Virus record (IMG/VR): IMGVR_UViG_3300031555_005217
Span: 71,047 to 135,046 of that record
DNA: 64,000 bases
Reading direction: 5' to 3' (one strand)
From: a virus
Lineage: Duplodnaviria; Heunggongvirae; Uroviricota; Caudoviricetes
Positions 7,802 to 62,106 of the stretch are shown here, in pieces. The notes under the pieces are model-generated. The model did no database searches. It was not told the DNA's origin and saw only the letters and a program-made list of their open reading frames with translations. How positions within the stretch are numbered: position 1 is the first letter of the stretch; every line of letters starts with the position of its first letter. The position numbers and the translations under genes were made by a program.

Positions 7802-8671
7802 TTATATATTTATTATATATACATTTACTTTTTTAGATATAACAGTAGTTGCATCTAAACCAATTAAATTTTCTCCTATATAAGCATTATTATTATTTTG
7901 CTCATTGTTAAAATATTCATGAAAATCCGCCGAACGCCAATGACCACAAACTAATATCTTACCTTTTGCTTTTTCCTCATCGAATAAACCTGATTCATAT
8001 TGTAAATAAGGACAACCCCACATAGCATCTTCCCATTCTAAACAATTTGATTGATAATTTCTTCAATTAGCATCATATGATAAAAATTTCTTATATCCTA
8101 ATTGATGCATTCCATAAATTGGTTGCATCATAGGATTTTTACAAGGAATAAAACTATGTACAAAGATGTACTTATCTAATTCATAATAATTTACTCATTG
8201 ACTTGAACGTAACCATTTAGTTATTTCAGATTTTTCAACTAACTTCTTTACTATATTTCAATTTTTATGTAATTTATCCTCTACTTGTTCGAAATCTAAC
8301 CCCATATAAAAAGCCTCATCGAATATATGGTATCTATCTAACTGCTTCTCATCCATACCTGCTATATTACAAAAAGTTCTAACGGTTCCATTACTAAAAT
8401 CATGTCTATCAGGAAAATATTTTTCTAATAATTCAAAATATAATGATTCATGATTACCTTTTACTAAAATACAACGTTTCTTAGGAATAGATTTTAAAAA
8501 TTTATATACTTCAATAGTTTCATATCCTCTATCAAATACATCACCACAAACAATTAAAGTATGATTTTTATTTCTTTTATCAAAACCTGCCTCTTTTAAT
8601 GATGCTTTCATTTCACTAGCAAAGCTATGAACATCTGATATCACAAAATACTTCATTATTAATCCCACCAA
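7802..8671 (-). CDS. Ser/Thr protein phosphatase-like metallophosphatase (lambda-PPase-like); single gene spanning two track ORFs
   Basis: Hand translation shows ORFs 8258..8671 and 7802..8023 are in the same frame, joined through three in-frame TGA codons (HKN-[TGA]-NIVKK, RSSQ-[TGA]-VNYYELDKYIFVHSF, SYDAN-[TGA]-RNYQS). Motifs DVHS, GDVFDRG, GNHE and GHW are present. Confidence 0.65.
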
Positions 8672-22363: not shown

Positions 22364-22437
22364 TGGAGCATCCGACCGGATTCGAACCAGTGATCAGAGG
22401 GTTGCGGCCTCCTGCCTTACCGCTTGGCTACGGACGC
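22364..22437 (-). tRNA. tRNA-Cys(GCA)
   Basis: Cloverleaf folded by hand. Acceptor GCGTCCG/CGGATGC, T-loop TTCGAAT, anticodon loop CCGCAAC (C33 is unusual), CCA encoded. Confidence 0.6.
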
Positions 22438-22445
22438 AAATTATA

Positions 22446-22520
22446 TGGCAGTTCCTACAAGATTCGAACTCGTAATATCAGGTCCGTAGCCTGAGGGTTT
22501 ATCCATTAGCCTAAGGAACT
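22446..22520 (-). tRNA. tRNA-Arg(ACG)
   Basis: Anticodon arm TCAGG-CTACGGA-CCTGA, T-loop TTCGAAT. Confidence 0.7.
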
Positions 22521-22524
22521 GTTT

Positions 22525-22610
22525 GGTACCGAAGGTGGGACTCGAACCCACACGTCTATAAGACACCAGTTTCTAAGACTGGCGTGTCTACCTATTCCAC
22601 CACTTCGGCA
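22525..22610 (-). tRNA. tRNA-Leu(UAG), type II
   Basis: Anticodon arm CCAGT-CTTAGAA-ACTGG, long variable arm, A73. Confidence 0.65.
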
Positions 22611-22615
22611 TATTG

Positions 22616-22692
22616 TGGTGGAAATGGGTGGAATCGAACCACCGACCTCAGACTTATCAGGTCTGCGCTCTAACCAACTGAGCTACATTTCC
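22616..22692 (-). tRNA. tRNA-Ile(GAU)
   Basis: D-arm GCTCAGTTGGTTAGAGC, anticodon loop CTGATAA. Confidence 0.75.
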
Positions 22693-22697
22693 AGTTA

Positions 22698-22775
22698 TGG
22701 TCGGAGCAGTCCGATTCGAACGGACGATCTCGTGGTCCCAAACCACGCGGAGTAACCAAACTATCCTATGCTCCG
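22698..22775 (-). tRNA. tRNA-Pro(UGG)
   Basis: Anticodon arm CGTGG-TTTGGGA-CCACG. Confidence 0.7.
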
Positions 22776-22916
22776 AAATTATACTATAATATCTAATTCT
22801 TGAATTTTGGAATAAATTAATAAAATTAAGTCTTCAAAATCAAAATAATCATAATCAAATTTTACTTCAATATCACGTGTTGTAAATTTATCTAATAAAC
22901 ATTGGTTATCAGTATC

Positions 22917-23126
22917 CTATTCTTGTTCAGCGTAGGTACAATCAAGTGTTACATACGGTTCTGAATTAAAAAATTCTATTTTCATAGAGTTAATACAAAA
23001 TCAACTTCTTGGAGAAATTAATTCTTTAACCATTGCATCTACGGCATCAACAATATTATTAATTTCATTATTAATAAGCGTAAATGGATGATTTTGTAAT
23101 GCTAATTTAGATTTCTTTCTATACAT
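22917..23126 (-). CDS. small hypothetical protein inside the tRNA array, with in-frame TGA
   Basis: Hand translation MYRKKSKLALQNHPFTLINN...SPRS-[TGA]-FCINSMKIEFF..., stop TAG. Confidence 0.3.
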
Positions 23127-23149
23127 ATTAATTTATTCCTTTCAATTAA

Positions 23150-23236
23150 TGGCGGAGAGCTAGGGACTCGAACCCTAAAGGCTTTTACACCTGGCGGTTT
23201 TCAAGACCGCTCGACTACCAATTATCACAGCTCTCC
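23150..23236 (-). tRNA. tRNA-Ser(UGA), type II
   Basis: Anticodon arm GCGGT-CTTGAAA-ACCGC, long variable arm, G73. Confidence 0.7.
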
Positions 23237-23244
23237 AATTTAAA

Positions 23245-23265
23245 GTATACCTAATAATTAGGTAT
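23245..23265. repeat. perfect 21-nt palindrome tatacctaat-a-attaggtata
   Basis: Seen directly in the sequence, between tRNA-Ser and tRNA-Thr. Confidence 0.6.
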
Positions 23266-23332
23266 AGAAGTTGCCAACCTTCATTCCTCATCTGTCTAAT
23301 GACTATTTTGTCAAGAGCTTGGCGGACCTTCT

Positions 23333-23408
23333 TGGTGCCGGAAGAGAGATTCGAACTCCCAACCTTCTCATTACAAGTGAGTAGCTCTACCGTTGGAGCT
23401 ATTCCGGC
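23333..23408 (-). tRNA. tRNA-Thr(UGU)
   Basis: Anticodon arm ACTCA-CTTGTAA-TGAGA. Confidence 0.7.
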
Positions 23409-23414
23409 ATTCAT

Positions 23415-23490
23415 TGGGGTGAGGTAAGGGAATTGAACCCTTATTGCAAGAGCCACAATCTTACGTCCTAACCGTTGAACGAACCTCACC
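23415..23490 (-). tRNA. tRNA-His(GUG) with encoded G-1
   Basis: Anticodon loop TTGTGGC, an extra 5' G pairing with C73. Confidence 0.7.
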
Positions 23491-23495
23491 ATATT

Positions 23496-23571
23496 TGGTG
23501 GAGGATGACGGGTTCGAACCGCCGACCCCTTGCTTGTAAGGCAAGTGCTCTCCCAGCTGAGCTAATCCTCC
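23496..23571 (-). tRNA. tRNA-Val(UAC)
   Basis: Anticodon arm CTTGC-CTTACAA-GCAAG. Confidence 0.75.
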
Positions 23572-23828
23572 AAATAGAATAAAATTAAATATATCTTAAG
23601 AGTGTAACATCCTTTGATGTCATGAGAACTTATTACTACATACTGAAGTTATGCATCACTACAATATATAGTTGATATATATGTTCTTTAAGTCAACCTT
23701 ATACTATACTATCACTATTTAAATACCTCTATACAGAGGATCAAGTGATCACTCAATAAAGCCAACTTAACTACAGCGGATTCAGCTAGCTAGTCTGCCC
23801 TGTAGACTTTTACTTTTATTTTAATTTT

Positions 23829-24058
23829 AATCTAAGTCATCTATAACTTTTTTTAAATCATTAAATAAAGTATTTCAAACAATTTTTCTATTCTTATTCT
23901 TATCTGGTTTACTATGAGCAACAGGTCCCTTGTATCTTAGATAATCATAATCAAAATAACTTCCATAATTTTCACCTCATGTATTCTGAAGATAAAAATT
24001 ATTTTTCATAAAAGCTTTTAACTTTCTAAATACTTTTTCTTTTTCTGCTCTCGTCATA
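23829..24058 (-). CDS. small hypothetical protein inside the tRNA array, with in-frame TGA
   Basis: Hand translation MTRAEKEKVFRKLKAFMKNNFYLQNT-[TGA]-GENYGSYFDY... Confidence 0.3.
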
Positions 24059-24082
24059 ATGTAATTTCCTATTTATCTTTAT

Positions 24083-24160
24083 TGGCAGGGGTGGCAGGAT
24101 TCGAACCTACGAAATGTCTGAGTCAAAGTCAGATGTGTTAAGCCGCTTCACCACACCCCT
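24083..24160 (-). tRNA. tRNA-Gln(UUG)
   Basis: Anticodon arm TCTGA-CTTTGAC-TCAGA. Confidence 0.7.
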
Positions 24161-24170
24161 ATTTGCTAAA

Positions 24171-24255
24171 TGGTGGGTGAGGCTGGACTTGAACCAGCAA
24201 TGCCGTTGGCGCCTGATTTACAGTCAGGTGGGGTTACCAATTTTCCTACTCACCC
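24171..24255 (-). tRNA. tRNA-Tyr(GUA), type II
   Basis: Anticodon arm CCTGA-CTGTAAA-TCAGG, long variable arm, A73. Confidence 0.7.
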
Positions 24256-24284
24256 ATTTATGGAGCAGGTGATGTAACTACCTG

Positions 24285-24992
24285 CTATAATTTCTTATCA
24301 TATAACTTATCTAAGTTATTTGTGTTTCTATTTATAAAAACAGGATACTTAGAAGTTATATAATTGAATATTTCGATTAAATCATCATAATGATATAATC
24401 TATAATTGACATTAAGTTTATTCATTGCTGCTACTTTTTCATATACAGGTCCTAAATCTCGTCCCTTTAATTCCACGTAGGTATTAGTTTCAGGTAAATA
24501 GAAATCTGGGTAATATTTATAGGTCTTACCTTTATATTCATAATCAAAAGACTTCTTATTTCTCTCTATCAATATATTATTATCTAAACAATATATTAAA
24601 AAAGCTAGTTCATAAGTTGAATCACATCTGAATCCTTTATATATTCCTTTTTTACCATAAGGTGTGGTATGATTAGGCCCACCAAGATTATGTTCTTTAG
24701 CAGAAATACTGAGTAATTGTCTCTTGCAGTCATCTGAACACGATTTAGATCTTCTTCTAGAGTAGGGAAGTATTGAATTACAGACCAAACAAAATTTAGG
24801 ATTATCTAAATAGATAGCTATCTTATTTTGTAATTTTTCTGAATAGGTATTATTCACGGTCTTACTTCTTTTTAGATTAATCTCTACTGTTTGTTTCCTA
24901 GAGTTGGAACATTTTCGTGAACAGAATTTTCCTGAACCAAATTTGACAAATACTTCTTTGTTACATTTTAAACATTTATATAAATAATTCAT
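24285..24992 (-). CDS. zinc-ribbon + PD-(D/E)xK-like nuclease, copy 1 (homing-endonuclease-like, embedded in the tRNA array)
   Basis: CLKCNKEVFVKFGSGKFCSRKC, then ...YKYYPDFYLPETNTYVELKG (PD...ExK). Start set at MNYLYK with SD ggag. The track N-terminus overlaps a tRNA. Confidence 0.45.
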   Translation of the reverse strand: MNYLYKCLKCNKEVFVKFGSGKFCSRKCSNSRKQTVEINLKRSKTVNNTYSEKLQNKIAIYLDNPKFCLVCNSILPYSRRRSKSCSDDCKRQLLSISAKEHNLGGPNHTTPYGKKGIYKGFRCDSTYELAFLIYCLDNNILIERNKKSFDYEYKGKTYKYYPDFYLPETNTYVELKGRDLGPVYEKVAAMNKLNVNYRLYHYDDLIEIFNYITSKYPVFINRNTNNLDKLYDKKL

Positions 24993-25058
24993 TATATCAT
25001 CTCCATATAATTTAGCGTAAAAATCGAACTGTTTTAAACTACTTGATGATATAATATA

Positions 25059-25132
25059 TGGAGCAGCATACCGGTGCTGCCCCGGTGCCGTCTGCTTGGA
25101 AGGCAGAGGTTCTACTGTTAAACTAATGCTGC
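25059..25132 (-). tRNA. tRNA-Gly(UCC)-like with non-canonical GC-rich T-loop (GGCAGCA); possibly a pseudo- or atypical tRNA
   Basis: Hand fold: acceptor GCAGCAT/ATGCTGC, D-arm GTTT-AACAGTA-GAAC, anticodon arm TCTGC-CTTCCAA-GCAGA, T-arm ACCGG-GGCAGCA-CCGGT, CCA encoded. Confidence 0.4.
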
Positions 25133-25180
25133 ATATAATTAGATGTGGTTCTACCATTGTCCTACACCTGCATATTAATT

Positions 25181-25256
25181 TGGCACACCCTCCAAGACTC
25201 GAACTCGGATCGTAGGCTTAGAAGGCCTATGTTCTATCCAGTTGAACTAAGGATGT
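25181..25256 (-). tRNA. tRNA-Arg(UCU)
   Basis: Anticodon arm TAGGC-CTTCTAA-GCCTA. Confidence 0.7.
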
Positions 25257-25259
25257 ATA

Positions 25260-25335
25260 TGGTGGAACCTCTTGGATTCGAACCAAGATCCGTGGTTCTT
25301 CAGACCACTGCATAGACCAACTTTGCTAAAGCTCC
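25260..25335 (-). tRNA. tRNA-Phe(GAA)
   Basis: Anticodon arm GTGGT-CTGAAGA-ACCAC. Confidence 0.7.
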
Positions 25336-25340
25336 GTTTA

Positions 25341-25415
25341 TGGCGGGAAATAATGGACTTGAACCATTATCTATCGGTTAACAGCCGATTGTTCTGACCT
25401 TTGAACTAATAACCC
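25341..25415 (-). tRNA. tRNA-Asn(GUU) (two U-U mismatches in the acceptor stem)
   Basis: Anticodon arm ATCGG-CTGTTAA-CCGAT, D-arm GTTC-AAAGGTCA-GAAC. Confidence 0.6.
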
Positions 25416-25430
25416 ATATTTTAAAATTAA

Positions 25431-26100
25431 TATTACTTGCAAGAAATAGTAAATGGCCACTTCCTATAAGAATCAAGTAATGTTATATAAACAAGAATAT
25501 CGTGCTTATACCTAGAACACAGTTCCTTATTCTTTTTTAAAAAGACCGATTGTCTCCGCCTAACCACACCATACGGTGCCTTCAATGGCATAGCAAAATG
25601 CTATCCAAAATTTTACATCCTTGCTTAAATAGGTGAAAGAATCCCTCGCCACAAAGTAAGGCGAACAAACGGCTTTGTCTAATTAATAGTAAAAATAACC
25701 TATTGTTAAATCCAAATCAATTATCATCCGATGATGTCTAGTTTGACAATAAACTAGGGAGACTTTTGCAAGTATACTTGGAACCAAGCAGGGAGATGCC
25801 ATAGTGCTTAATTTGTCATTTTGTCAAGTTCAACCACATTTTACCGACTACCACGCAAGGCTCCGGAACTCGCATCCTTCCGCTACGGCTATTCCTATAA
25901 CTCGAATAGTTTTAGACTTTGTTATTATAACCTTTGTCTTTGTTCTCAATAGAGACTCACTAATAAGCTAAACTTATTATCCATAACCCCCGCTTTCGCA
26001 GTATTATGACCTTTGATCTTGTCGTCTTTAAGACGTGCGCTAATAAATATTCATTTATTATCCGTAGAATCCGTTCTCACACAACTACGTCTTTTTTTAT
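25431..26100 (-). ncRNA. large structured non-coding element, copy A (core about 25600-25940), homologous to copy B
   Basis: About 670 nt with no ORF in any frame and locally GC-enriched. The core 25619-25741 and 25833-25935 aligns with 28978-29100 and 29221-29300, with conserved stems (cgcc..ggcg) and variable inserted hairpins. Strand assumed from the flanking tRNAs. Confidence 0.5.
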
Positions 26101-26102
26101 TT

Positions 26103-26189
26103 TGGTGCCCGAAAAGAGATTTGAACTCTTATGCTATTAAGCGCAAGTGCCTAAAACTTGTGTGTCTACCGAAATTTCACCATTCGGGC
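26103..26189 (-). tRNA. tRNA-Leu(UAG) second copy, type II
   Basis: Anticodon arm CAAGT-TTTAGGC-ACTTG, long variable arm. Confidence 0.6.
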
Positions 26190-26194
26190 AATTA

Positions 26195-26281
26195 TGGTCG
26201 CTAGAAAGGGATTTGAACCCTTAATCCTGTAAAGGCGACGGATTTTAAGTCCGTTATGTATGCCAATTCCATCATCTAGCG
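26195..26281 (-). tRNA. tRNA-Leu(UAA), type II
   Basis: Anticodon arm ACGGA-CTTAAAA-TCCGT, long variable arm. Confidence 0.7.
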
Positions 26282-26290
26282 TTATTTAAT

Positions 26291-26367
26291 TGGTGGACTA
26301 GATAGGACTTGAACCTATGACCTACTGATTAACAGTCAGTCGCTCTAACCAACTGAGCTAATGCCCC
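26291..26367 (-). tRNA. tRNA-Asn(GUU)-like; acceptor stem pairs poorly (possible pseudo- or chimeric tRNA)
   Basis: Canonical D-arm GCTCAGTTGGTTAGAGC, anticodon arm ACTGA-CTGTTAA-TCAGT and T-arm, but 5' GGGGCAT faces 3' CTAGTCC. Confidence 0.35.
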
Positions 26368-26396
26368 ATAATGGTGTTATTTAAACACCTATATAA

Positions 26397-27284
26397 CTAT
26401 TCATATAACTGAATAAAATCTTTACCATATTTTTCAATAACATAATCTAAATATGGTTTAATTTCAGTGTAAGTTATTACTTTTATTGGATATTTGAATT
26501 GTTCTATCTTTGCTTTTCATTTATCAGAAGAATAACCCTTAATTTCTACATATTTACCATCTTCTATAAAATCTGGGAAATATTTTAAAGTCTCATCCTT
26601 AAAAGTATACTCAAATCCTTGTTTGTTTCTAATAAAAGGAATATTATGTTCAAGATTATATATTACATATGCTAATTCTCAAGAACTATCACAATAATAA
26701 CCTTTATATCAACCATGTTTACCTAAACCTGAACCTTTTCTATAACCTCCAGGAGTTTTTACTTTAATACTTTTTCCATAATCTGTATGATAAAGACAAT
26801 AAGAACATAATCCTGTTTTTGTATAGTTTCCAATTAATTTTCCACATTCTTTACAGAAAGATACTTTTTTGGATTTTTTGATTTCAATATTATAATCTGA
26901 CTCAATAACTGATTTACGTATCTTCTCTTTTACTTCTTCAGATCTTTCTCTTGAATTAGCACAAGATCTAGAACAGAATCTACCTGATCCAAATTTTTCA
27001 GTCATAACTTTTCCACATTTTTCACATGTGTGTTGTTCTGAGATTCATTCTTGAATCTTACTTTTATTAACTTCAATAAGTTCTAATTTTTTATTTTCTC
27101 TATTCTTATTACATTGGTCTATTAAGTTAGTTCTACGTTCATCTAATTTGATAGTATTTCCATATTTAGCTAACATATGAATTTTACAATGACCTTTATG
27201 TCCATTAAAACTTTGTGAATTATAGAATTTTTTACCACATTCACATAAATAAATATTCTCATAATTAAATGTATTCATAAACAT
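26397..27284 (-). CDS. zinc-ribbon + PD-(D/E)xK-like nuclease, copy 2; a single gene spanning three track ORFs via in-frame TGA codons
   Basis: Hand translation joins 27045..27284, 26709..27005 and the 26400-26708 segment in one frame: ...KIQE-[TGA]-ISEQHTCEKCGKVMTEKFGSGRFCSRSC...KHG-[TGA]-YKGYYCDSS-[TGA]-ELAYVIY...YFPDFIEDGKYVEIKG...; paralogous to 24285..24992. Confidence 0.5.
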
Positions 27285-27314
27285 TCTCCTTTTTATCTTA
27301 CATTTAATTTAGTA

Positions 27315-27352
27315 CAATATTTGGTTTCGGATTTAAGAATTGAACCTATTAA
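27315..27352 (-). other. tRNA 3'-half remnant (T-arm AATAGG-TTCAATT-CTTA plus acceptor 3' strand plus CCA) with no 5' partner
   Basis: Seen directly in the sequence, immediately downstream of the tRNA-Glu-like gene. Confidence 0.35.
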
Positions 27353-27427
27353 ATTAAAATGGTGACGGCTAAGGGTTCCGCCCCCTCCATCCTGGAGTGA
27401 AAGTCCGGTGTGTTCACTAGTTCACCA
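27353..27427 (-). tRNA. tRNA-Glu(UUC)-like with non-canonical GC-rich T-loop (GGCGGAA)
   Basis: Hand fold: acceptor GGCGGCT/AGCCGTC, D-arm GTG-AACTAGTGAA-CAC, anticodon arm CCGGA-CTTTCAC-TCCAG (one C-A mismatch), T-arm GAGGG-GGCGGAA-CCCTT, CCA encoded. Confidence 0.4.
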
Positions 27428-27451
27428 AGCCGCCAAAATAATAAAACTGTC

Positions 27452-27526
27452 TTTAAACTGGTGCTCTAACTTGGAATCGAACCAAGGACTAGACATTACC
27501 ATTGTCTTGTTTTACCTACTAAACTA
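27452..27526 (-). tRNA. tRNA-Thr(GGU)
   Basis: Anticodon arm AGACA-ATGGTAA-TGTCT, T-loop TTCGATT. Confidence 0.6.
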
Positions 27527-27718
27527 AGAGAGCATTCTAAGCTTTTAAGCTTGATTATTAATATTAGATAAAAATACTAACATCATTAAATTTGCAAGAG
27601 ATTTTAAAAATTTAAACATAATGAAAACTCACTCCTCTCTATAAAATAAATTAAAGAGTACGTTGTTTTAAGTTTTCATTTCTGTACATAAATTATGTGT
27701 CACCTCTTATAATATTTT

Positions 27719-27794
27719 TGGATGCGGAGGACGGACTCGAACCGTCGACCTTCGGGTTATGAGCCCGAAAAGCTACCACTGCTACACTCCGCAA
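27719..27794 (-). tRNA. tRNA-Met(CAU), initiator-like (three G-C pairs closing the anticodon stem, weak 1:72 pair)
   Basis: Anticodon arm TCGGG-CTCATAA-CCCGA, U1-A72. Confidence 0.6.
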
Positions 27795-27877
27795 TATATC
27801 CATTTTGAGTTTTTATGAGGTCAAAAGGTTTACTAATGTAAAACACCTCAATTTCATTTCTTAGTAAAAATTTTACC

Positions 27878-28090
27878 TTATGCTAATACTCTACTGATGA
27901 CGAATCTTGTAGTTTCATTAAACTTATATTCAATTACATGTTTTTCTCTAGCATATTCATCTTGTAGATATGCAAATGCATTAAGTTTGCTACACATATA
28001 GTTAAATGCTTGTTCTCTTGTTGCAAACTTCTTTCTTGTAGAATAAGGTACTGAGTTAATAACTCCTTGTAATTTATAATATTTTTTCAT
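27878..28090 (-). CDS. small basic hypothetical protein
   Basis: Track ORF trimmed to MKKYYKLQG, which has a strong SD ggaggcagataaag. Confidence 0.45.
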   Translation of the reverse strand: MKKYYKLQGVINSVPYSTRKKFATREQAFNYMCSKLNAFAYLQDEYAREKHVIEYKFNETTRFVISRVLA

Positions 28091-28165
28091 CTTTATCTGC
28101 CTCCATAATTTATAGTTTATAATGGTCATTTCGGACCAAGACAATAAAGATATTTAACATCACTA

Positions 28166-28241
28166 TGGTGGAACTAGTCGGGATCGAACCGACGGCCTTC
28201 TGCGTGCAAAACAGACGCTCTCCCAGCTGAGCTATAGCCCC
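28166..28241 (-). tRNA. tRNA-Ala(UGC) with G3-U70
   Basis: Anticodon arm TCTGT-TTTGCAC-GCAGA. The acceptor stem carries the G3-U70 wobble that is the Ala identity element. Confidence 0.7.
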
Positions 28242-28250
28242 ATTTATTTT

Positions 28251-28338
28251 TGGTACCTCGGGCCGGAGTCGAACCGGCACGCCTTTAAGGGGCATGGGAT
28301 TTTAAGTCCCACGTGTCTACCTATTCCACCACCGAGGC
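28251..28338 (-). tRNA. tRNA-Leu(UAA) second copy, type II
   Basis: Anticodon arm TGGGA-CTTAAAA-TCCCA, long variable arm. Confidence 0.65.
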
Positions 28339-28343
28339 ATTTA

Positions 28344-28418
28344 TGGTGTGTCCGCTGGGACTTGAACCCAGGACCTCCTGATTAAAAGTCAGGTGCTCTA
28401 CCACTGAGCTACGGACAC
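28344..28418 (-). tRNA. tRNA-Lys(UUU)
   Basis: Anticodon arm CCTGA-CTTTTAA-TCAGG. Confidence 0.75.
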
Positions 28419-28421
28419 ATA

Positions 28422-28498
28422 TGGCGGTCTGAACGGGACTTGAACCCGCGATCTCCAGTGTGACAGACTGATATGTTAACCAACTACACCACCAGACC
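28422..28498 (-). tRNA. tRNA-Asp(GUC)
   Basis: Anticodon arm TCAGT-CTGTCAC-ACTGG. Confidence 0.75.
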
Positions 28499-28499
28499 A

Positions 28500-29760
28500 T
28501 TTCAAGGAACATTATAGATCCAATCTAAAACGTTCCAGTAATCTCCTTCTACCATATGTAGATGAGTTAATTATAACTGAACTCGCTATTTACGAATTCG
28601 GGACTCTTTCTACGTTCGTAGATGAGTATAACAAAATTATTTTGTCTTTGCTAAATAAATATATACCTTGCTTGTGGTGAAGGTACCAACGCCTCGGTGA
28701 ACGGACGATTCTCATTTTATTTCAATGAATCAGTTGATCAGACCGATATAATCAAGACCGATACTATAACCAGAAAAGTCTTTCGGAATAACCCGTAACT
28801 TAATGCGCATTACCCTGCTTACTCTTTCCTAATGCTAGCTTTTAGTACTTAAATTCTTTTCAACAAGCCTTTGTATTTTCTTTAACTTTGTCTTTTTGCT
28901 TAATCTGCTTTCAGGGTAAGCGCCCGTCGTACTTTTTGGCCTTCAGGTATACGAAATTTACCTGTTTACTTCTACAGCTTGCTTAAATAGGTGAAGCACT
29001 CATACGCCACAGGAGTAAGGCGATCCAAACGGCTTTATTTAATTAATGGTAGATATAACCTATTGTTAAATCTAAATTAATTATCATCCGATGAGGTCTA
29101 GTTAAATTCATTTTAATTCACATATAAACACTCTTGTTTATACTTCCTAAGGCATTTTTGGCTAAAATATGCTAACCTCTTATAATTAAACCAATTTTAA
29201 TTATAAGTGAACCTAACATCACCCACATTTTACCGACTTTACGGCTATTCCTTTACCTCGAATAGTTTTAGGAATCCTGTCATTATAACCTTGTTTGGAA
29301 TAATACCAAAATCTCTACCGATTTCGATGTTATTGTTACAACTTTCGTTGCCGAGCTAATCTAATTTCAGCATATCAACCTAATATTCAAAATTAAGTGA
29401 CGACATTATTAGGTTATCGCTATTCAGTCTACGTAAGACCTTTCACCCTTTATCAATTTTTCTTTCGAGTAAAAATGATAAAACTCTTGTGACAATTTCT
29501 GCCCTCACTACATAAATATATTATGCATCCTATGTCACCGGTCTCCCACTACATAGCCTTTATAATTGCTAGTTATCTCAATTAAGAGACTCTTTATTTA
29601 AGATTTAGTCTTCGGTAGGTTCATCATTACTAGCACTGTGAATTCTACCACCAAGGTTTGAACAATTAGTTTGCTAATCGGTTCTCCACTTCTTAGTTGG
29701 AAATCCGCCTCGCCAGCAGCACCACCACGAGCAGGTTTGTTCTTGGTGCCATATAATATA
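28500..29760 (-). ncRNA. large structured non-coding element, copy B (about 1.25 kb; core 28978-29300 homologous to copy A)
   Basis: No ORF of 60 aa or more in any frame across 1.26 kb and locally GC-enriched. Blocks gcttgcttaaataggtgaa..cgccaca..agtaaggcga..aaacggcttt, ccgatga.gtctag and cattttaccgact..acggctattcct.ta.ctcgaatagtttta are shared with copy A. Confidence 0.5.
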
Positions 29761-29769
29761 CAATATTTT

Positions 29770-29801
29770 TAAATAAAAAAGGACGGCATCTTAAGCCATC
29801 C
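29770..29801 (-). terminator. rho-independent terminator (stem GGATGG/CCGTCC then T-run on minus strand)
   Basis: ggacggcatcttaagccatcc preceded on the plus strand by aaaaaa. Confidence 0.55.
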
Positions 29802-30110: not shown

Positions 30111-30206
30111 TGGCAGGGGCTACAGGATTCGAACCCGTACCCACGGCTTTGGAGACCGTTACCCCAGTTTTGAAGACTGGTGTGCTAACCGTTACACTAA
30201 GCCCCT
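30111..30206 (-). tRNA. tRNA with anticodon UCA (predicted UGA decoder / suppressor), 96 nt, type II long variable arm, G73
   Basis: Hand fold: acceptor AGGGGCT/AGCCCCT, D-arm GTGT-AACGGTTA-GCAC, anticodon arm CCAGT-CTTCAAA-ACTGG, 25-nt variable arm with internal ACGG/CCGT stem, T-arm ACGGG-TTCGAAT-CCTGT, G73, CCA encoded. Confidence 0.7.
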
Positions 30207-32518: not shown

Positions 32519-33457
32519 TTATAAATTTAAAACATATTTAATATAATTATCTGAATATGATTTTAATACCTTAAAATTAATTGTTGGTTGATGGAATTTC
32601 TTTAAAATTATTTCCCAGTTATCTCTAAAGAATTCATTAAATGTTCTATTTAATAATTCAAAGATATATTTAGATGACCATATTCCACCCTTATCTTCAA
32701 TTAATTTATGATACTCTTTTTGAATATGTTCTACTGTCATTAAATTAATTATTGCATGTTCAATTGGATTTTCATCTTTTTCAACTTTATTTTCATGTCT
32801 TAGCTTACCTTTTGATTTTCTAAAATCCTCAGTTAAAACTTTCGCCCATTTAATATGGCCTCATCTGTTTCGATAATCATAATTTTTAATTACAATTCCT
32901 TCACCTGTTCCTTCAGTGATTAAGAATTCTCCGGTCTTATCTAAATAAGATTGAATTTCTTCCTCTGTTGGATTTTCTAATTTTGCAATTAATGGAATAA
33001 TATTAACTTCAGGATATTGTTTCATTTCCTCTCTCCATATATCATAGTTAATATATTTTTCATTTTCAACATCATATACATCAAATAGATATAATTTTTT
33101 CCAAGCATCTTGACCATATCTCTTTATAGTATGTGGAATTAACCACTCACCATATAGAATATAATTAGGATGTTTGCTTAAATAATTATGTAATTGTTGA
33201 TATAATTGGTTAGGAATTTTAAGTCCTGTAACTTCATTGGTATCCAACTGACATAAAGTTTCCATAAATTTACCATTATCATCTTCTAAAGATAATTCTC
33301 TTTTTCTAGATCCAAAGCCTAATAGATTATCATCTCTTAACCATACACAAGCATTTGTTCCATCGATTTTGTAAGTTAAATAACAAGTTCCATTTAGGAT
33401 TCCTTCTACCTCACTTGTTCCAAGTTTTTCAATGTGCATATATTTCTTGAATTCCAT
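32519..33457 (-). CDS. RNA ligase (Rnl-family nucleotidyltransferase); one gene spanning two track ORFs via TGA
   Basis: Motif I YKIDGTNA and motif IV GEGIVIK. ORFs 32861..33457 and 32519..32740 are in the same frame, joined by DYRNR-[TGA]-GHIKWAKVL.... The stop is TAA. Confidence 0.6.
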
Positions 33458-34065: not shown

Positions 34066-35244
34066 TTATATTTTATATTTAGGTAAGTCCTTTTTATCTA
34101 TCTTAATAAACGTCTTCCCATCTATTGCAATACTTTTATTTATAGATTTTTTTATGAAGTATTCATTAATTTTATAATAATCCACTACATCTTTTAAACA
34201 GTAGAATTCTAAATTATCTTCAATACAGAAGTAACAGTATGATTTATTTCTAGCGGCAGCTCTTGCTGCTATAGAACACTTTTCTTTCATAATCTTTTTT
34301 TGTTCCTCAGTTAACTGTCTTCTATTTAAGGCACTCTGTGACAATCTTTTTTTATACTCCTCAGAATATTTTTTACCTTTATTATAAGGTATAAAGTTAC
34401 TACCTTCAATTTTTCTACCTAACGTTCAATCTGAATAATGTAAGTTATATTCATCTAAAGAAACATGTTTAGTTATTTTTCCATTATTAATTCAAATATC
34501 TTGTGAGTGTAACCCTTTCATATTATCACTCATAAGCTTTCTTGTTTCAATGCTAAATTTCTTACCATTATTGGTTCCATAATATCCAGTTTTTTCAAAT
34601 AAAGTATGTAATCTTTTTTCGGCACTCAGTGATAATCTAAAGTCTATATCTTTAGTTAAATTTTTATTTCAAGGAATTTTACCTAATTGATTTAGGTGAT
34701 TTTTTTCACTTATTATTCTCATTGAGGGATGGGTGAATTTAGTAAGATCTTTATTCCAAGGGATATGATTAGGTTTTCATCAAGATATAGATACTTTTTC
34801 TCTTCAACTATCTGATTGAAAAATTTCTTTTTGTCTTAAATGAAATGCTTCTTTATAAGTTAATAATTTAGGTAATTTTTTAATTAAATCTTCTTCTGAT
34901 ATGTAATTATACTTTTCTGTAGTCATTAAATAGAAGGCACAACATAATCTAATATATAAACTTCTATCAGAAATACATCCACATAAATAATAATGTGCTA
35001 ATATATGATCTTCAATACTTAAATTAACTAAGTTAGTATTACTATTATCTATTTCAAGATTATTTAAAATATAGTAGGATTTAGGTATTATATGATGTCT
35101 TTCTGTTTTAAATTTGATTTTAACAGTATTTATATTATTTAAACATAATTCTATATATTTATTTAAATAATTGTTATCTATAAATACATTTAATCTTAAT
35201 AATTTAGATTTTAATTCTATATACATAAAAAATATCGCCTCCAT
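34066..35244 (-). CDS. HNH homing endonuclease with NUMOD-type DNA-binding repeats; one gene spanning two track ORFs and an unannotated gap
   Basis: HNH motif ERHHIIPKSY...NLVNLSIEDHILAHY; PWNK motifs HIPWNKDL and KIPWNKNL with W encoded by TGA; NUMOD3-like GKKFSIETRKLMS and GKKYSEEYKKRLS. At least 8 in-frame TGA. The likely true start is the second ATG (35226), which has SD ggaggcg. Confidence 0.65.
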
Positions 35245-36358: not shown

Positions 36359-39300
36359 TTATGCTAACGTACACACTTTTGCTATATGGTTACAACCACT
36401 AATAAAACCAGTTTCAAAGTTAATAGTAGGATTATCGTATGTATATCCAGTAAATATATTTGATGTCTTATTGGAATATGTTACATTGACTATATAAGAA
36501 ATAGCGTTACTTGCTAAAGTCCAAATATCAATAGTTGCTGAACCATTGCCTGTAGTACCTTGACCAACAACTACATATCTTCCATTTCCATAGGTACTAG
36601 ATAAAGCGGCAATATCTAACACACCATCTGAGAATACTTTTGAAATATCTATTGTAGGGTTAATCTCCGAAGCAATCTTACTTGATGACCAAGTAGAATA
36701 AGTATTTCCAGTTGATGAATCATTAATATTTCCATATTCAGTAATTGCTGTATATTCTGCTGCTTCATACTCTGCCTGTGATGATGCTACAAAATCTGCA
36801 CTAGTATAAATTTTACTATACTTATCTATTTGTTGAGTTTTTGGGCGAATTATCATAGTATTAAAGGGAGTTGCTTTGTAAATAAATAAATCTACTTGAT
36901 AATGTCCACTACCTGTAAGTGATTTAAAATTTCCTCATTTTACGGAAATAGTGCTTTGAGGATTACCTCTTAAACCAATATTTTTTACGATACATGAAGA
37001 AGCAGAATCACTATTACTATATACGGAAATAATACTCTCATATCCTAAAACATTAACTGAAAATGTTGTTTCTCTTCCATAATACAAATCTACTGTAAGT
37101 TTTCTGTATCTACTATCAGTAAAATATATTTCATTAAATGGAGTAGCGCCTTGAACTCGTTTTTCCACTGTTGCAAGAGTATTTTTAGAAGCAAATGCAC
37201 TTTCAGGTATTAAAGTCATCTCACTCTTGTCAGCAGGTAAGGCTGTAACCATTTCAGGTCGGGTAATTGCGCCACTCACTTTAATAGTACACCATTGTCT
37301 AATTTCAAGATAATAACAACCATTAGTAGGATAGTAATACAAACGTTGAATCTTATAATTAGGATCAATTCCATCATACAGAGTATAATCTGTTGCACTA
37401 TATGTGGTCCAATCACCATAACTATATCTAACCAATTTAACAGATTTATATGTACCGTCATCAGCCATACCAGTAATTTCAACTTTTCCTCCATATTGGT
37501 CGGTAATTGTAATAGGTTGGAATTTTGTAACATTACCTAATGTTAATTTAAGCCATTGTGTAGCACTTGCCGTACCAAATGTGTACACACCATACTTCGC
37601 ATCAATCTTAGAAGAAGAATATGTAGAAGTAGTCGATACTATCTCATCTGAAATAACACTATCTAAAATTTCTTTAGGAACTGATTTTGTTATTTCTGTT
37701 CCAGTATAAGTTTCACTGCTAGATAAAGCAGGAATATCTCCGTGAACTGGAATAATTGATGCATATCAAATTTGATCAGTTACTGTTGGAATTATATATA
37801 AATCACAATTGTCGATATATTTACTAAAAGATCTTTCCCCTTGTAATTGTTGAACTCTACATCTTGCTTCAGTACCAGCACCGTAATTAGTAATTAAGAA
37901 AGTACCATATCCTGTTCCTATAGTTGTTCTGACAGATAAAATTGCTGTAGTTAACTTATTAGGTAATAAACTTACTTTTAAATACTGACCACTTTCTATA
38001 GTTGTTGTTGATTTTAATTCTACTTTTTTAGCAAAATCATTATTAATTTCATCAGCAGTAAGATATTTTTCTAAAGTTTTATTTAATCCTTTTAATTCAA
38101 CATCAATTTTAACAACTGAAGGATCAAGAACTTCTCATCCACTTCCTGTCCAATAGTAATAAACATTTTCTGTTTCACTAAGTAAAAGAATACAGTCATC
38201 AGGTTTTAAAACACTAACATCTGGTAAAGTATCACTCTCTGTATAAACTCCAATAAAATGACATTCTTTATCGGAAGTAAGACTGTTATCTAAATTATCT
38301 AACTTAGTTTTATATTCTTCAGTGAAGTTATTATCAGTGTGAACATAATTTTTATCTATAACAAGACCTTCTGGCTCTGTATAATTTTCAAGTCCCGCTA
38401 ACTTTTCTTTCTCTGCTGTCGTAAAGTCATTTGTTGATAACCCTTTTCCTTCTACCTTATTTACTTTATTTCCAAGAGAGACTTTAATTTCGCTATCATC
38501 ATAATTGTTTAGATTTGCTAATTTTTCTTTCTCTGCTGTCGTAAAGTCATTTGTTGATAACCCTTTTCCTTCTACTTTATCAACTTTATTTCCAAGAGAG
38601 ACTTTAATTTCGCTATCATCATAATTGTTTAGATTTGCTAATTTTTCTTTCTCTGCTGTCGTAAAGTCATTTGTTGATAACCCTTTTCCTTCTACCTTAT
38701 TTACTTTATTATCTATTTCAACTTGTAAATCAGAAGCATCAAAATTATTTAATCCAGCTAATTTTAACTTTTCTTCATCTGTAAAATCATTAGTAGAAAG
38801 ACCTTTTCCTTCAATCTTATCTACTTTATTCGATAAATTTGTGTTTAGCGCCGCGATCTCAGTTAAAGCGGCATCATAACTTCCTACTTTTGAAGCATTA
38901 ATTCCACTATTAACAGCTTCTAATTGAGTTTGAGTTAAAGTATTTTGTTTTGTATCTAACTCTTCTTTGCTGGCTAAATGAGTTAAGTCAACCATACCAC
39001 CTAATTTATCCCATTGACTACCATCTCAAGCATAATTATCTCCAGTATCTAGTACATTATATACATCACCTATTGTTTGATCAGCAGAAGGTAAACTGTC
39101 ATAAGAATCAACGGTTCCTCTATATTTATAAGAAGTTGATGTTTTTGCATCTACTTCAGCTTTAGTGTAAACATCTGCTTTATTAGCTTTTAAATCAAGA
39201 GATAAGTCTGTTTCAGTTTTAGTATAATGATTTACGGCTTGCGCAGCGATTTGATTGTCAACATAATCTTTAGTAGCTTTATCTTCTAAATTTGCACTTG

Positions 39301-40060
39301 TAAGAAAATCGCTATCATTTGTTAATTGAGAAGTTTTTGTAGGAATATTATCTACTTTATTTTTATACTCATTAGTAAAATCATTTGTAGATAATCCTTT
39401 TCCATTAACTTTATCTACTTTATTTTCTAAAGTTGTTTCAATTCCTGTTGCATCGAAATTGCTTAAATTAGATAATTTAAGTTTTTCTTCATCAGTAAAG
39501 TCATTACTAGATAAACCTTTACCATCAATTTTTTCTACCTTATTATTTAATGCATTTTGAATTGCAGTATCATCAAAGTTATTTAAGTTAGATAACTTAT
39601 TTTTTTCTTCAGAAGTGAAATTATTATCAGTATGAACATAGGTTTCATCAACTACTATATTTTCCGGTAATTTCTCTAAAGTTGCAAGTTTCTCCTTTTC
39701 TGCTGTAGTAAAATCTTCTGTACTTAGCCCTTTTCCAATGACTTTATCTACTTTATTTTCTAAAGATTCTTTGACTTCTGTATCATCATAATTTTCTAAA
39801 GATGCTAATTTTGTTTGGGTTTCATTCTTGAAGTTTTCATAATTAATATCTTTTACTACTGTATTAGGTAAGACATATTTATTAGCACCTTCTTCAATAC
39901 CATTTAATTTATTAGCTTGATCTTCTGTAAAAGTATTTTCAGGGATAGTATATATAATTCCATCAACACTTAAACTAGTTAATTCTGATTCATTTCCTGT
40001 TGTGCTTGGATTAACTATTACTTTTGTATCTCCGCTTAATTTTCTAAAAGTATAAGCCAT
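36359..40060 (-). CDS. giant tail fibre / receptor-binding protein (about 1230 aa) with tandem 40-aa repeats; one gene spanning four track ORFs
   Basis: ORFs 39026..40060, 38135..38995, 36935..37588 and 36359..36856 are in the same frame and are joined only by TGA codons (...GDNYA-[TGA]-DGSQWDKLGGMVDL..., ...YYYWTGSG-[TGA]-DEVLDPS...). KVDKVEGKGLSTNDFTTAEKEKLANLNNYD repeats. Confidence 0.65.
38400..38720. repeat. about 120-bp DNA tandem repeat, roughly 2.7 copies, inside the tail-fibre gene
   Basis: Near-identical units beginning ttttctttctctgctgtcgtaaagtcatttgttgataaccc... at about 38403, 38523 and 38643. Confidence 0.7.
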
Positions 40061-45100: not shown

Positions 45101-45110
45101 AATATACAAT
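45101..45110 (-). promoter_or_regulatory. class-1 promoter-like motif
   Basis: aatatacaat upstream of 44833..45081. Confidence 0.35.
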
Positions 45111-46408
45111 TATTCAGCTGCTTTGAAATTATATATAGGTTTAATTATCTTTGTAATTTCAACAGTATCACCAATAGCATTAATTATTTCTTCCATAGGT
45201 TTATAAGCCATAGGTGCTTCATCTAATGTACTTTCATTTGCAGTAGTGGTAAAGATATTAGACATTTCATTTTGGAAATCTTCTACTTTTAATACCTCTT
45301 TAGCTTTCATTCTTGACATAATACGACCAGCACCATGAGGAGCTGAATAGTTCCAATCTTCATTTCCTTTTCCTATTCCAATAATACAACCATCTCTCAT
45401 GTTCATAGGAATAATTACATTCTTACCTTTATGAGCTGATATAGCACCTTTTCTAACCATATCTTCATCATCAATGTAGTTATGAACAGATTCAAAATAG
45501 GTAAGGTTAGCAACACCATCAGTAGTAGGAATTGAATCTCTTACATCTAGGTTATAATATTTAATTTGTTTACCTTTGTAATATATAAACCTATCAAGAA
45601 TCTTTCTTGCTATAGAATATCTATTTTCCTGTGCAAATTGTTGACAGATTCTCATATCATGTAGATAATCCTCTCTATCCTCACCTTCCAAGTAACATAA
45701 GTCTTTAGGTAATTTTGTTAACCCATTATATTTATCATATAAGGCTTTTAAGGCATTTTCAATTTCTTTCTCTCTACCTTGTTCTTTATATTCTTTTAAA
45801 ATAGCTAATCTTTCACTATTTAATTCTTCTTTATAAGAACAATGTTCAATAGCTATTTGTTGGTAAATATCTGCAACTTGTTTACCTAAGTTACGTGAAC
45901 CAGTATGAATAACTAAATATAAATTATCCTCATCATCTTTATCAATTTCAATAAAGTGATTTCCACCACCTAATGTACCCAGACTAGATCTTAAGTGTTC
46001 TTTATTCTTTAAATATCTATAACAATATAATTTTTGTAAATATGTTCTTTCTACATATTCTTCAGATAAAGATATATCATTAGGGAATATTCTCTTATCA
46101 CTATAATCATTAACTTCAAAACCATTAGGAATGTTGTTTTTAATGAAATTATCTAACTCAAATAAATTAAGATCAATCTTACCTAAATTAACACATAACA
46201 TTCCACAGCCTATATCAACACCTACAATATTAGGGATTACTTTTTTACCTAGATTACCTGTAAAGCCAATTACACAACCCATACCGGCATGAACATCAGG
46301 CATTATTCTAACCTTACAATCTTTAAAGGCTTCTTGTTGTAAAAGAGTGTTAATTTCTTCCATTGCTTTTTCTTCTATGTTATTAGTAAATATTTTTAAA
46401 TCAGACAT
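45110..46408 (-). CDS. rtcB: RtcB RNA-splicing ligase (3'-phosphate/5'-OH ligase)
   Basis: MPDVHAGMGCVIGF, GGNHFIEI, HGAGR. Confidence 0.85.
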   Translation of the reverse strand: MSDLKIFTNNIEEKAMEEINTLLQQEAFKDCKVRIMPDVHAGMGCVIGFTGNLGKKVIPNIVGVDIGCGMLCVNLGKIDLNLFELDNFIKNNIPNGFEVNDYSDKRIFPNDISLSEEYVERTYLQKLYCYRYLKNKEHLRSSLGTLGGGNHFIEIDKDDEDNLYLVIHTGSRNLGKQVADIYQQIAIEHCSYKEELNSERLAILKEYKEQGREKEIENALKALYDKYNGLTKLPKDLCYLEGEDREDYLHDMRICQQFAQENRYSIARKILDRFIYYKGKQIKYYNLDVRDSIPTTDGVANLTYFESVHNYIDDEDMVRKGAISAHKGKNVIIPMNMRDGCIIGIGKGNEDWNYSAPHGAGRIMSRMKAKEVLKVEDFQNEMSNIFTTTANESTLDEAPMAYKPMEEIINAIGDTVEITKIIKPIYNFKAAE

Positions 46409-56538: not shown

Positions 56539-57374
56539 CTATTTTATCATTCCTTTCATTCAACCTAAAGATAAGTATAATTCTAATTCTTCCTTATAAA
56601 TACATTTATTTACAATTTCATTATTTATTCAAATTTTACCTTTATTATGAGCTTTCCTGCCTTTATGTCCCTTACTAATATTTTTACATGCTGAAGATGA
56701 AAATTTCTTTCTACCTAGTCTTCAACCATTATTTAAATAATCATCTAAGTGCTCTTTGTTAACTCTAATAGAAGTTATATCATTAGTTATATAAACCATA
56801 CCTCTAAATGGCTTTGATTTACCTTTATTTGCATCAGAGATTTTTTTCTTGGACTCTTCAGAAAGATGTTTACCACGCATTCCATAATTAGGATTATTAG
56901 CAGCATTTTCAGATAATTTTTTCTTAGTATCCTCAGATATTATTTTACCTTTATTACCTAAACCAATTTTTAATTTAGTCTCTTGTGAATGATGTTTTCC
57001 TAACATAAATCTAGCATTATTTTGTGACATGATTCTTCTACTCTCTTCTGAATGATGTTTTCCATAAAAACCATTATTTTCTCCTCTTAATGTTCGGTTA
57101 ACATTGCCGCCTTCAGATAAATTATAACCAATATTTTTATTAGTTGAATTATAATATGCTATTCAATATATTTCACGTACATCCATTAATTTCTCTTCAT
57201 CAATTTCTTCAACTAATTCAACAATAAATTTATCTTTTCCATATTTATTAATTGCTTCTCAAAGACGTTTGCCAGAACCTAAATAATTAATACCTAAAAA
57301 TTTTTCTGATTTCTTTTGTCCAATGTAAATTTTACCATTAATTAAATTCGTAGTTTTATAAATATATCCATACA
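56539..57374 (-). CDS. GIY-YIG homing endonuclease with NUMOD3 repeats
   Basis: Hand translation MYGYIYKTTNLINGKIYIGQ (GIY...YIG), GKRL-[TGA]-EAINKYG, NUMOD3 GKHHSEESRRIMS / GKHHSQETKLKIG / GKHLSEESKKKIS, C-terminal NNG-[TGA]-RLGRK and LSLG-[TGA]-MKG. Five in-frame TGA. Only the 56722..57030 segment appears in the track. Confidence 0.7.
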
Positions 57375-57431
57375 TACTAAATCAACCTTCTTTCAATTAA
57401 TTTAGCACTCTAAAGTGGAACTTTTGAATAT

Positions 57432-62065: not shown

Positions 62066-62106
62066 ATAAAAACCTCCTTAGTATAATTAAGCATATCCAT
62101 TTTCTT

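Follow-up and report, generated by a model that had tools for sequence, protein, structure and literature searches.

We analyzed a minus-strand transfer RNA (tRNA) gene located at 30111-30206 of a 64,000-nt stretch of Caudoviricetes phage DNA (positions 71,047 to 135,046 of the IMG/VR record IMGVR_UViG_3300031555_005217), hereafter the window. ARAGORN predicts a tRNA of 96 nt, including the encoded CCA, with the anticodon tca. In a search of the whole window, the Rfam model RF00005 finds the same gene with 58.9 bits (gathering score 29, E=3.5e-10), this general tRNA model being the top-scoring member of its clan, and the alignment treats ∼22 nt as an insert in the variable region. The minimum free energy fold is a cloverleaf with an extra hairpin. 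Acceptance by ARAGORN, a check named in the first-pass annotation of the window, and by Rfam confirms this gene as a real tRNA. Every element of the clean fold described in that annotation (acceptor, D-arm, anticodon arm, variable arm, T-loop, and G73) is present, and the gene does lie apart from the main tRNA array, 1.6 kb from the nearest gene of that array (22364-28498).

Read 5′ to 3′, the RNA begins with the acceptor strand AGGGGCU (tRNA positions 1-7; 30200-30206), all seven bases of which pair with 30115-30121. After UA comes the D-arm, GUGU-AACGGUUA-GCAC (30182-30197), which has a 4-bp stem and an 8-nt loop and is common to the whole family of relatives described below, followed by a single A and by the decoding anticodon arm CCAGU-CUUCAAA-ACUGG (30164-30180, with UCA at 30171-30173), which we refer to as arm 1 and which is found by ARAGORN and in the fold. 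A linker, GGUA (30160-30163), which varies among relatives and measures 4-7 nt in the family alignment A1, leads to a variable-arm hairpin, ACGGU-CUCCAAA-GCCGU (30143-30159, loop at 30148-30154), which we refer to as arm 2 and which is seen in the fold, in blastn matches, and in covariation. The 3′ linker GGGU (30139-30142) represents the variable-loop positions up to U48, with NGGU kept across the family. The T-arm, ACGGG-UUCGAAU-CCUGU (30122-30138), is supported by the fold and by Rfam, and the gene ends with the acceptor 3′ strand AGCCCCU, G73 (30114), and the encoded CCA (30111-30113), which together span 30111-30121. The variable region is thus 25 nt long and has its own 5-bp hairpin, instead of the short 4-5-nt loop typical of bacterial tRNA-Trp (Trp, tryptophan). 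The decoding arm carries U34 C35 A36 where bacterial tRNA-Trp has C34 C35 A36, and a CCA loop is found on the variable arm only.

Arm 2, the nature of which had been overlooked in the first-pass annotation, matches an anticodon arm in its dimensions and tRNA-Trp(CCA) in its loop. A blastn query spanning arm 2 and everything 3′ of it hit phage genes annotated as tRNA-Trp(CCA). The gene therefore resembles a tRNA-Trp with a doubled unit, "A26 + anticodon arm + 4 nt", one copy carrying UCA and the other CCA. To find relatives, we scanned IMG/VR and JGI metagenomes with the pattern AGTGTAAN{4,6}GCACANNNNNCTTCAAA, in which the D-arm and the UCA loop alone are specified; because it stops there, nothing 3′ of the anticodon loop was required. 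Among the matches listed, the pooled scans gave at least 124 distinct sequences, i.e. 102 with a long arm, 12 short, and 10 spurious or interrupted. In these at least 102 long-arm sequences, the loop of the best 5-bp hairpin is CUCCAAA (60 sequences), GUCCAAA (27), GUCCAUA (5), or UUCCAAA (5); three others show UCCA out of register, and the remaining two do not conform. Again among the matches listed, these loops are carried on 43 different stem sequences.

An alignment of 44 family sequences (A1) shows how arm 2 is conserved. The U, C, C, and A columns of its loop are invariant, whereas the linkers vary in both length and sequence. When A1 is scored for a five-helix structure, 98.1% of the cells pair, versus 77.9% after shuffling and 38-51% when the partners are slid. 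All four scored pairs of arm 2 display compensatory changes, one of them occurring as CG (17 sequences), GC (15), AU (4), UA (4), and GU (3), and unguided RNAalifold recovers the same five helices, arm 2 among them. The two arms differ at the loop-closing pair 31-39, which is Watson-Crick in 44/44 sequences in arm 1 but broken in 11/44 in arm 2, and about one third of the arm-2 loops carry G32. Given these features, and the A33 of the isoleucine (Ile) mimics presented below, arm 2 looks unlike an arm used in decoding.

The same architecture is not confined to one scaffold. A second route, using a pattern for both loops, was how other scaffolds came to light, since the first pattern fixes the D-arm; it retrieved the dual-arm design on other D-arm scaffolds (loci L025, L073, L082, L132, and L187, numbered as fetched). 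Across the fetched loci, 156 of 175 UCA tRNAs are at least 84 nt long, as against none of the 55 co-resident tRNA-Trp(CCA), many of which lie in the same arrays. This shows that the arm accompanies the C34 to U34 change and, when the two kinds of tRNA are compared, is restricted to UCA tRNAs. Some dual-arm genes are found in bacterial assemblies, either in a prophage beside terminase genes in Bacteroides neonati MS4 or on phage-like contigs binned with Parabacteroides and Gemmiger. In the B. neonati MS4 scaffold (L132, 1678-4093), the dual-arm UCA tRNA lies in a prophage-like region by terminase and HNH genes, and the large-terminase open reading frame (ORF) has one in-frame TGA; this is a recoded prophage within a cultured standard-code Bacteroides. 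Two other loci, L239 and L246, contain the 5′ half of a family UCA tRNA with unrelated sequence (TTGGAGC...) directly after CTTCAAA, a break that may be an intron in the anticodon loop.

Next to arm 2, the rest of the molecule speaks for the amino acid. The acceptor reads A1-U72, G2-C71, G3-C70, G4-C69, and G5-C68, plus G73, which is the set of determinants known for tRNA-Trp of Bacillus subtilis and Escherichia coli (PMC9976931; PMC2965240). When either arm was deleted in silico and the remainder compared with the several hundred tRNAs predicted in all fetched loci, the 12 nearest neighbors were all tRNA-Trp(CCA), and the best Trp score was 44 versus 25 for the best other canonical isotype. 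In the family, G73 is present in 83/84 full-length members and A1-U72 in 74/84. Identity elements and nearest neighbors together show a body of predicted Trp type. The first-pass annotation was correct in stating that the acceptor is not selenocysteine (Sec)-like, but not in stating that the body is not Trp-like, since the acceptor and G73 form the Trp identity set and the 12 best matches are Trp. Its description of a D-arm and acceptor unlike those of tRNA-Sec holds, with a 7/5 acceptor/T domain, a 4-bp D-stem, and an 8-nt loop.

Codon usage in the window was examined for the expected counterpart, i.e. TGA read as sense. In ∼92 minus-strand ORFs there are 55 in-frame TGA and 168 TGG codons, with ∼24 ORFs holding TGA, and when TGA is treated as sense, coverage by ORFs of at least 100 codons rises from 72% to 81%. 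The earlier view of the UCA tRNA as the UGA decoder to be expected where TGA serves as sense is correct. Three client genes, all on the minus strand, are informative. A metallophosphoesterase gene (7802-8656) has three in-frame TGA, and when the protein was queried with X at these positions, all three columns were Trp in 120/120 homologues. A gene with four in-frame TGA (36359-40060) yields, when fragments are fused by reading TGA as sense, a tail-fibre-like protein of 1233 amino acids; the JGI gene calls on the same phage (L311) also read through TGA and give a single 1233-residue product. Finally, a gene for a NUDIX-like protein (62087-62722) has four in-frame TGA, three of which fall in columns that are Trp in all aligned homologues. 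Overall, six of the seven TGA columns tested are invariant Trp in homologues, which bears out the earlier view that protein conservation favors Trp. In related loci, a gain of ORFs under code 4 is clear in L048, L068, L266, L274, and L295, and uninformative near tRNA arrays. In the work of Seki et al. (PMC12636597), all 13 phage tRNA-UCA analyzed by mass spectrometry inserted Trp. On these comparative grounds, codon usage and alignments show that the phage reads UGA as Trp.

The tRNA listing of the fetched loci also brought to the surface 91-nt tRNA-Ile(UAU) genes, which offer an independent parallel. A scan for tRNA-Ile(UAU) that likewise placed no condition on the variable region returned among the matches listed at least 109 distinct sequences: 87 short, 12 long, and 10 with unparsed T-loops. 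In 12/12 long sequences among these matches, the loop of the variable-arm hairpin reproduces the canonical GAU anticodon loop of Ile, exactly or nearly so (CUGAUAA, CUGAUUA, CUGAUAU, CAGAUUA, or CAGAUAA, i.e. C[U/A]GAU[A/U][A/U]). As in the Trp family, the stems differ and covary (GCGC/GCGC, GCGG/CCGU, CCGG/CCGG, GUGC/GCAC, CCGC/GCGG, and CGA/UCG). They are 3-4 bp long, A33 is often found in the arm loop, and A73 is present throughout; the anticodon and A73 are strong determinants for isoleucyl-tRNA synthetase (PMC9976931). Of seven loci checked with ARAGORN, six gave a tRNA-Ile(tat) of 91-96 nt; long examples are found in L046 (11311-11401), L331 (4956-5051), and L319 (2705-2799), and also in L336, L362, L420, and L332. 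Two unrelated families, Trp(UCA) and Ile(UAU), therefore couple a non-canonical anticodon with a variable-arm copy of the canonical loop. We propose to group them, on the basis of their loops, as a putative family in which the 7-nt loop of the variable-arm hairpin is the canonical anticodon loop of the acceptor's amino acid while the tRNA's own anticodon is non-canonical. The tRNA of the window, ∼100 of 102 Trp(UCA) relatives, and 12/12 long tRNA-Ile(UAU), among the matches listed, have this combination.

Because the anticodon is an identity element, changing it usually harms recognition by the synthetase. The reading that we favor, with moderate confidence, is that arm 2 would give tryptophanyl-tRNA synthetase (TrpRS) the anticodon identity element lost by the decoding anticodon. 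A synthetase is proposed as the partner since it reads anticodon loops in an amino-acid-specific manner and would benefit from a copy. On the ribosome, arm 1 (UCA) would decode UGA, and UGG by wobble, which would let the phage translate those genes, about one quarter of the total, that have in-frame TGA at Trp positions. Arm 2, with its 5-bp stem and N-U-C-C-A-A-A loop, would present the CCA element to TrpRS, most likely the host enzyme, and charging with Trp would stay efficient despite the C34 to U change in the decoding anticodon. Two routes can be envisaged: a flexible arm 2 might reach the anticodon-binding domain of TrpRS, or arm 2 might transiently replace arm 1 under the D-stem. We infer the binding of arm 2 by TrpRS, its geometry, and the use of the host rather than a phage enzyme. 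As for its origin, arm 2 probably arose by a tandem duplication extending from position 26 through the anticodon arm and the short variable loop. Extending the argument to Ile, we are evenly divided on whether phages exploit a modular trick in which a canonical anticodon stem-loop is a portable variable arm, its copy read by the host synthetase and the new anticodon by the ribosome (UCA for UGA to Trp, UAU for AUA without lysidine), with the arms possibly swapping under the D-stem between charging and decoding.

Several points weigh against a role of arm 2 in charging a Trp-inserting tRNA. Bacterial TrpRS already charges UCA derivatives of tRNA-Trp, as reported for a B. subtilis opal suppressor (PMC2965240) and by Borges et al. 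(10.1101/2021.08.26.457843), and ∼10% of the related UCA tRNAs among the matches listed have no arm. Because TrpRS tolerates UCA to some extent, and about a tenth of the family lacks the arm, a device for efficiency or specificity is more likely than an absolute requirement. The path from the position of the variable loop to the anticodon-binding site of the synthetase is not obvious. Family members are related by descent, and their counts are not numbers of independent events. The motif scan for TrpRS and release factor 1 (RF1) covered 64 kb of a genome of ∼191 kb, which leaves room for a phage enzyme elsewhere. Finally, codon 70 of the NUDIX-like gene (62087-62722) is a TGA that aligns with Ser or Ala in the four available homologues, at a variable site.

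The best surviving alternative is that arm 2 acts as a decoy, titrating or distracting a host reader of the Trp anticodon loop other than the synthetase, such as an anticodon nuclease or a Trp T-box leader. The phage encodes an RtcB and an Rnl-type RNA ligase, enzymes typical of tRNA repair, and its near-complete tRNA set fits pressure on the tRNAs of the host. A general decoy, however, needs no link to the anticodon of its carrier, whereas the arm is found only on tRNAs with a non-canonical anticodon (UCA or UAU) and never on the co-resident tRNA-Trp(CCA). In addition, we know of no anticodon nuclease specific for Trp or Ile, which also counts against this explanation, and we regard it as unlikely.

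Somewhat less probable still is a two-headed decoder that would alternate between two cloverleaves, reading UGA with UCA and UGG with CCA. The two arms are equal in dimensions, the junction is near-symmetrical (A26, arm 1, a linker usually ending in A, arm 2, and NGGU), and the window contains no separate tRNA-Trp(CCA). Yet UCA already reads UGG by wobble, and many relatives encode a normal tRNA-Trp(CCA) beside the dual-arm tRNA. Arm 2 also tolerates what arm 1 does not, accepting G32 in about one third of the sequences and a broken 31-39 pair in 11/44, when this pair is kept in arm 1 in 44/44, and the Ile analogues have stems of 3-4 bp and frequently carry A33 where U33 is otherwise universal.

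The possibility that the tRNA is a serine-accepting opal suppressor, charged by seryl-tRNA synthetase (SerRS) through G73 and the long arm so that UGA would mean Ser, is very improbable. It had been raised in the first-pass annotation, and G73, G2-C71, and a long variable arm are indeed present, as is the one TGA column that aligns with Ser or Ala in four homologues. Because the acceptor and G73 form the bacterial tRNA-Trp identity set, G73 is no argument for SerRS. Bacterial tRNA-Ser conserves G1-C72 and G2-C71, and recognition by SerRS depends on the size and orientation of the arm (PMC9976931). The tRNA of the window has A1-U72 instead of G1-C72; its arm has four unpaired nt on each side and a 7-nt loop, while the arm of the phage's own tRNA-Ser is ∼17 nt; and the conserved UCCA loop plays no part in recognition by SerRS. 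We therefore rejected Ser identity on A1-U72, on the architecture of the arm, and on Trp conservation at six of seven TGA columns.

Slightly more remote is the possibility that the anticodon arm was duplicated in tandem and that arm 2 is a neutral, functionless remnant. The arms can be aligned and the unit of A26, arm, and 4 nt is repeated, but UCCA is invariant in the 44 aligned sequences while every stem position changes with compensation and the linkers are free, the arm is found on several scaffolds, and tRNA-Ile(UAU) repeats the design around another loop; the covariation pattern already contradicts a neutral relic. A tRNA-Sec or Sec-like tRNA, suggested by UCA, the CUUCAAA loop, G73, the long arm, and the ARAGORN label "SeC", is effectively refuted and was rejected on structure and codon usage, given a 7/5 acceptor/T domain and a D-stem of 4 bp closing an 8-nt loop where Sec has 8/5 and a 6-bp D-stem, a general tRNA model that scores best in the clan, 55 in-frame TGA at Trp positions, and a label that is uninformative because ARAGORN gives it to every UCA tRNA, including those of 72-74 nt.

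Another candidate, in which both loops would be cleaved, 22 nt removed, and the ends joined by RtcB to leave a hybrid stem, was also discarded. The 5′ strand of arm 1 and the 3′ strand of arm 2 are fully complementary in 0/82 sequences, whereas arm 1 pairs fully with itself in 69/82 and arm 2 in 60/82; this splicing model fails because the hybrid stem is never complementary.

Recoding of TGA to Trp with phage suppressor tRNAs is already known. The TGA-recoded (code 4) gut phages of Borges et al. (10.1101/2021.08.26.457843) and Seki et al. (PMC12636597) resemble the phage studied here in being large and AT-rich, in encoding a UCA tRNA, in having in-frame TGA in part of their genes (among them structural genes and homing endonucleases), and in the Trp inferred or measured at UGA. 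Some of them carry their own TrpRS and RF1, whereas a motif scan saw none in the window. Both papers are silent on a long variable arm and on a second CCA loop, the features that set the present tRNA apart.

In Mollicutes and mitochondria, tRNA-Trp(UCA) has a short variable loop and TrpRS has co-evolved. There too, UCA reads UGA and UGG as Trp and the acceptor has Trp identity, but in the tRNA of the window the arm measures 25 nt, and this tRNA probably functions in a host with the standard code.

Synthetases are known to bind hairpins that mimic anticodon loops. In the E. coli thrS operator and in the yeast AspRS mRNA, such hairpins are bound by the anticodon-binding domain of the cognate synthetase according to identity rules (PMC9976931), and the recognition principle that we propose therefore has a precedent. 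Those mRNA-leader mimics are regulatory, whereas the present mimic sits in a tRNA that is itself a substrate, and its binding by a synthetase is proposed. Nematode nev-tRNAs (PMC3333845) and allo-tRNAs (PMC5389517) likewise combine a long variable arm with the anticodon of another amino acid or of a stop codon, but their arm confers Leu or Ser identity whatever its loop, whereas here the loop is conserved and matches the amino acid of the acceptor. Bacterial tRNA-Sec (selC) shares the CUUCAAA loop, G73, and a long variable arm. It has, however, an 8-bp acceptor with a 5-bp T-stem and a 6-bp D-stem with a 4-nt loop (PMC7609411); the tRNA of the window has neither the 8-bp acceptor nor the 6-bp D-stem, and UGA is in general use at Trp positions.

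What appears to be new is arm 2 as a conserved copy of the CCA anticodon hairpin, and potentially a general principle. Within the phage-recoding, non-canonical-tRNA, and tRNA-identity literature searched, which covers these fields incompletely, so that a prior description is possible, there is no mention of a long-arm tRNA-Trp(UCA), of a second anticodon loop, or of the Ile analogue. If the role proposed for arm 2 is correct, this would be a previously unrecognized class of tRNA architecture, in which a codon is reassigned without changing a synthetase. Offering one anticodon to the ribosome and another to the synthetase would answer the reassignment problem in a simple, natural way, and the Ile(UAU) design suggests that this answer is a general one. 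It would also explain how phages switch UGA to Trp late in infection of standard-code hosts without always supplying TrpRS, and could serve as a design principle for synthetic suppressor tRNAs, to be copied for efficient suppression in genetic-code expansion. Standard tools label such genes tRNA-SeC or "undetermined", and phage genetic-code calls and annotations are therefore affected.

The source of the window is a large gut or rumen phage reading UGA as Trp. The window has a G+C content of 26.8% and nearly all of its genes are on the minus strand. The same phage was assembled from several metagenomes in contigs of 65-191 kb (the longest being 191,569 bp), and our analysis read 64 kb of this ∼191-kb genome. 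A megablast search found no close relatives among cultured phages, and the phage DnaB is only ∼34% identical to the DnaB of Clostridium, Streptococcus, and Bacillus phages. The tRNA array, on the minus strand at 22364-28498, contains 25 tRNAs (22 predicted by ARAGORN and 3 found by Rfam only) for 19 amino acids. As assessed by ARAGORN and Rfam in the window, none of the 25 is a tRNA-Trp(CCA), and Trp is the sole amino acid not covered. There is no canonical tRNA-Trp(UCA) elsewhere in the 64 kb that could account for UGA decoding, an explanation that had been considered in the first-pass annotation. No Sec machinery turned up in the window, although no search was aimed at SelA/SelB/SelD or a SECIS element. 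By motif scan, neither the window nor the fetched loci contain an ORF with KMSKS/HIGH-type motifs or a large GGQ ORF, i.e. candidates for TrpRS or RF1. The three Rfam-only tRNAs are atypical: a Gly(UCC) with an odd T-loop, GGCAGCA (25062-25132), an Asn-like GUU with a mismatched acceptor stem (26294-26367), and a weak Glu(UUC) of 32.9 bits (27363-27434).

Between the array and the UCA tRNA lies a region of ∼1.3 kb (28500-29780) without an ORF of at least 60 codons in any frame, with a G+C content of 0.30-0.36, above that of neighboring genes, and with no Rfam match. It is bounded by the tRNA array and by a strong terminator-like hairpin (29803-29779, minus strand), which is downstream of the UCA tRNA and of a 44-codon ORF with an AAGGAG ribosome-binding site. 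This region could be a large structured RNA. The two RNA ligases, the RtcB-type at 45110-46408 and the Rnl-type (PF09414) at 32519-33457, suggest, as typical tRNA-repair enzymes, pressure from host anticodon nucleases. Homing-endonuclease-like ORFs of the HNH and GIY-YIG types are found in or near the array (24285-25157, 26397-27284, 34066-35244, and 56539-57375), and several such ORFs are unusually rich in in-frame TGA (4-6 each), located at motifs such as PWNKG and EIYWI.

Long-armed tRNAs with UCCA were also seen outside phages. Two Bacteroidota chromosomal fragments with FabH, PlsX, and T9SS-domain genes (L210, 4705-5234, and L222, 2333-2522) carry clusters of 91-92-nt tRNAs with CCG, UCG, and UCA anticodons. 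These tRNAs have the same D-arm as the phage Trp(UCA) family, and the loops of their long variable arms contain UUCCA. The clusters gave rise to the idea that "UCCA" is a generic binding motif unrelated to the amino acid, which was rejected because the Ile(UAU) family with its GAU loops argues against it. We treat these clusters as a phenomenon separate from the phage Trp(UCA) arm. Their UCA member has an arm made of a 7-bp stem and a UCC triloop, and a Gly-like acceptor (G1-C72, C2-G71, G3-C70, and U73). CGG codons occur at conserved Arg positions in the flanking FabH and PlsX genes.

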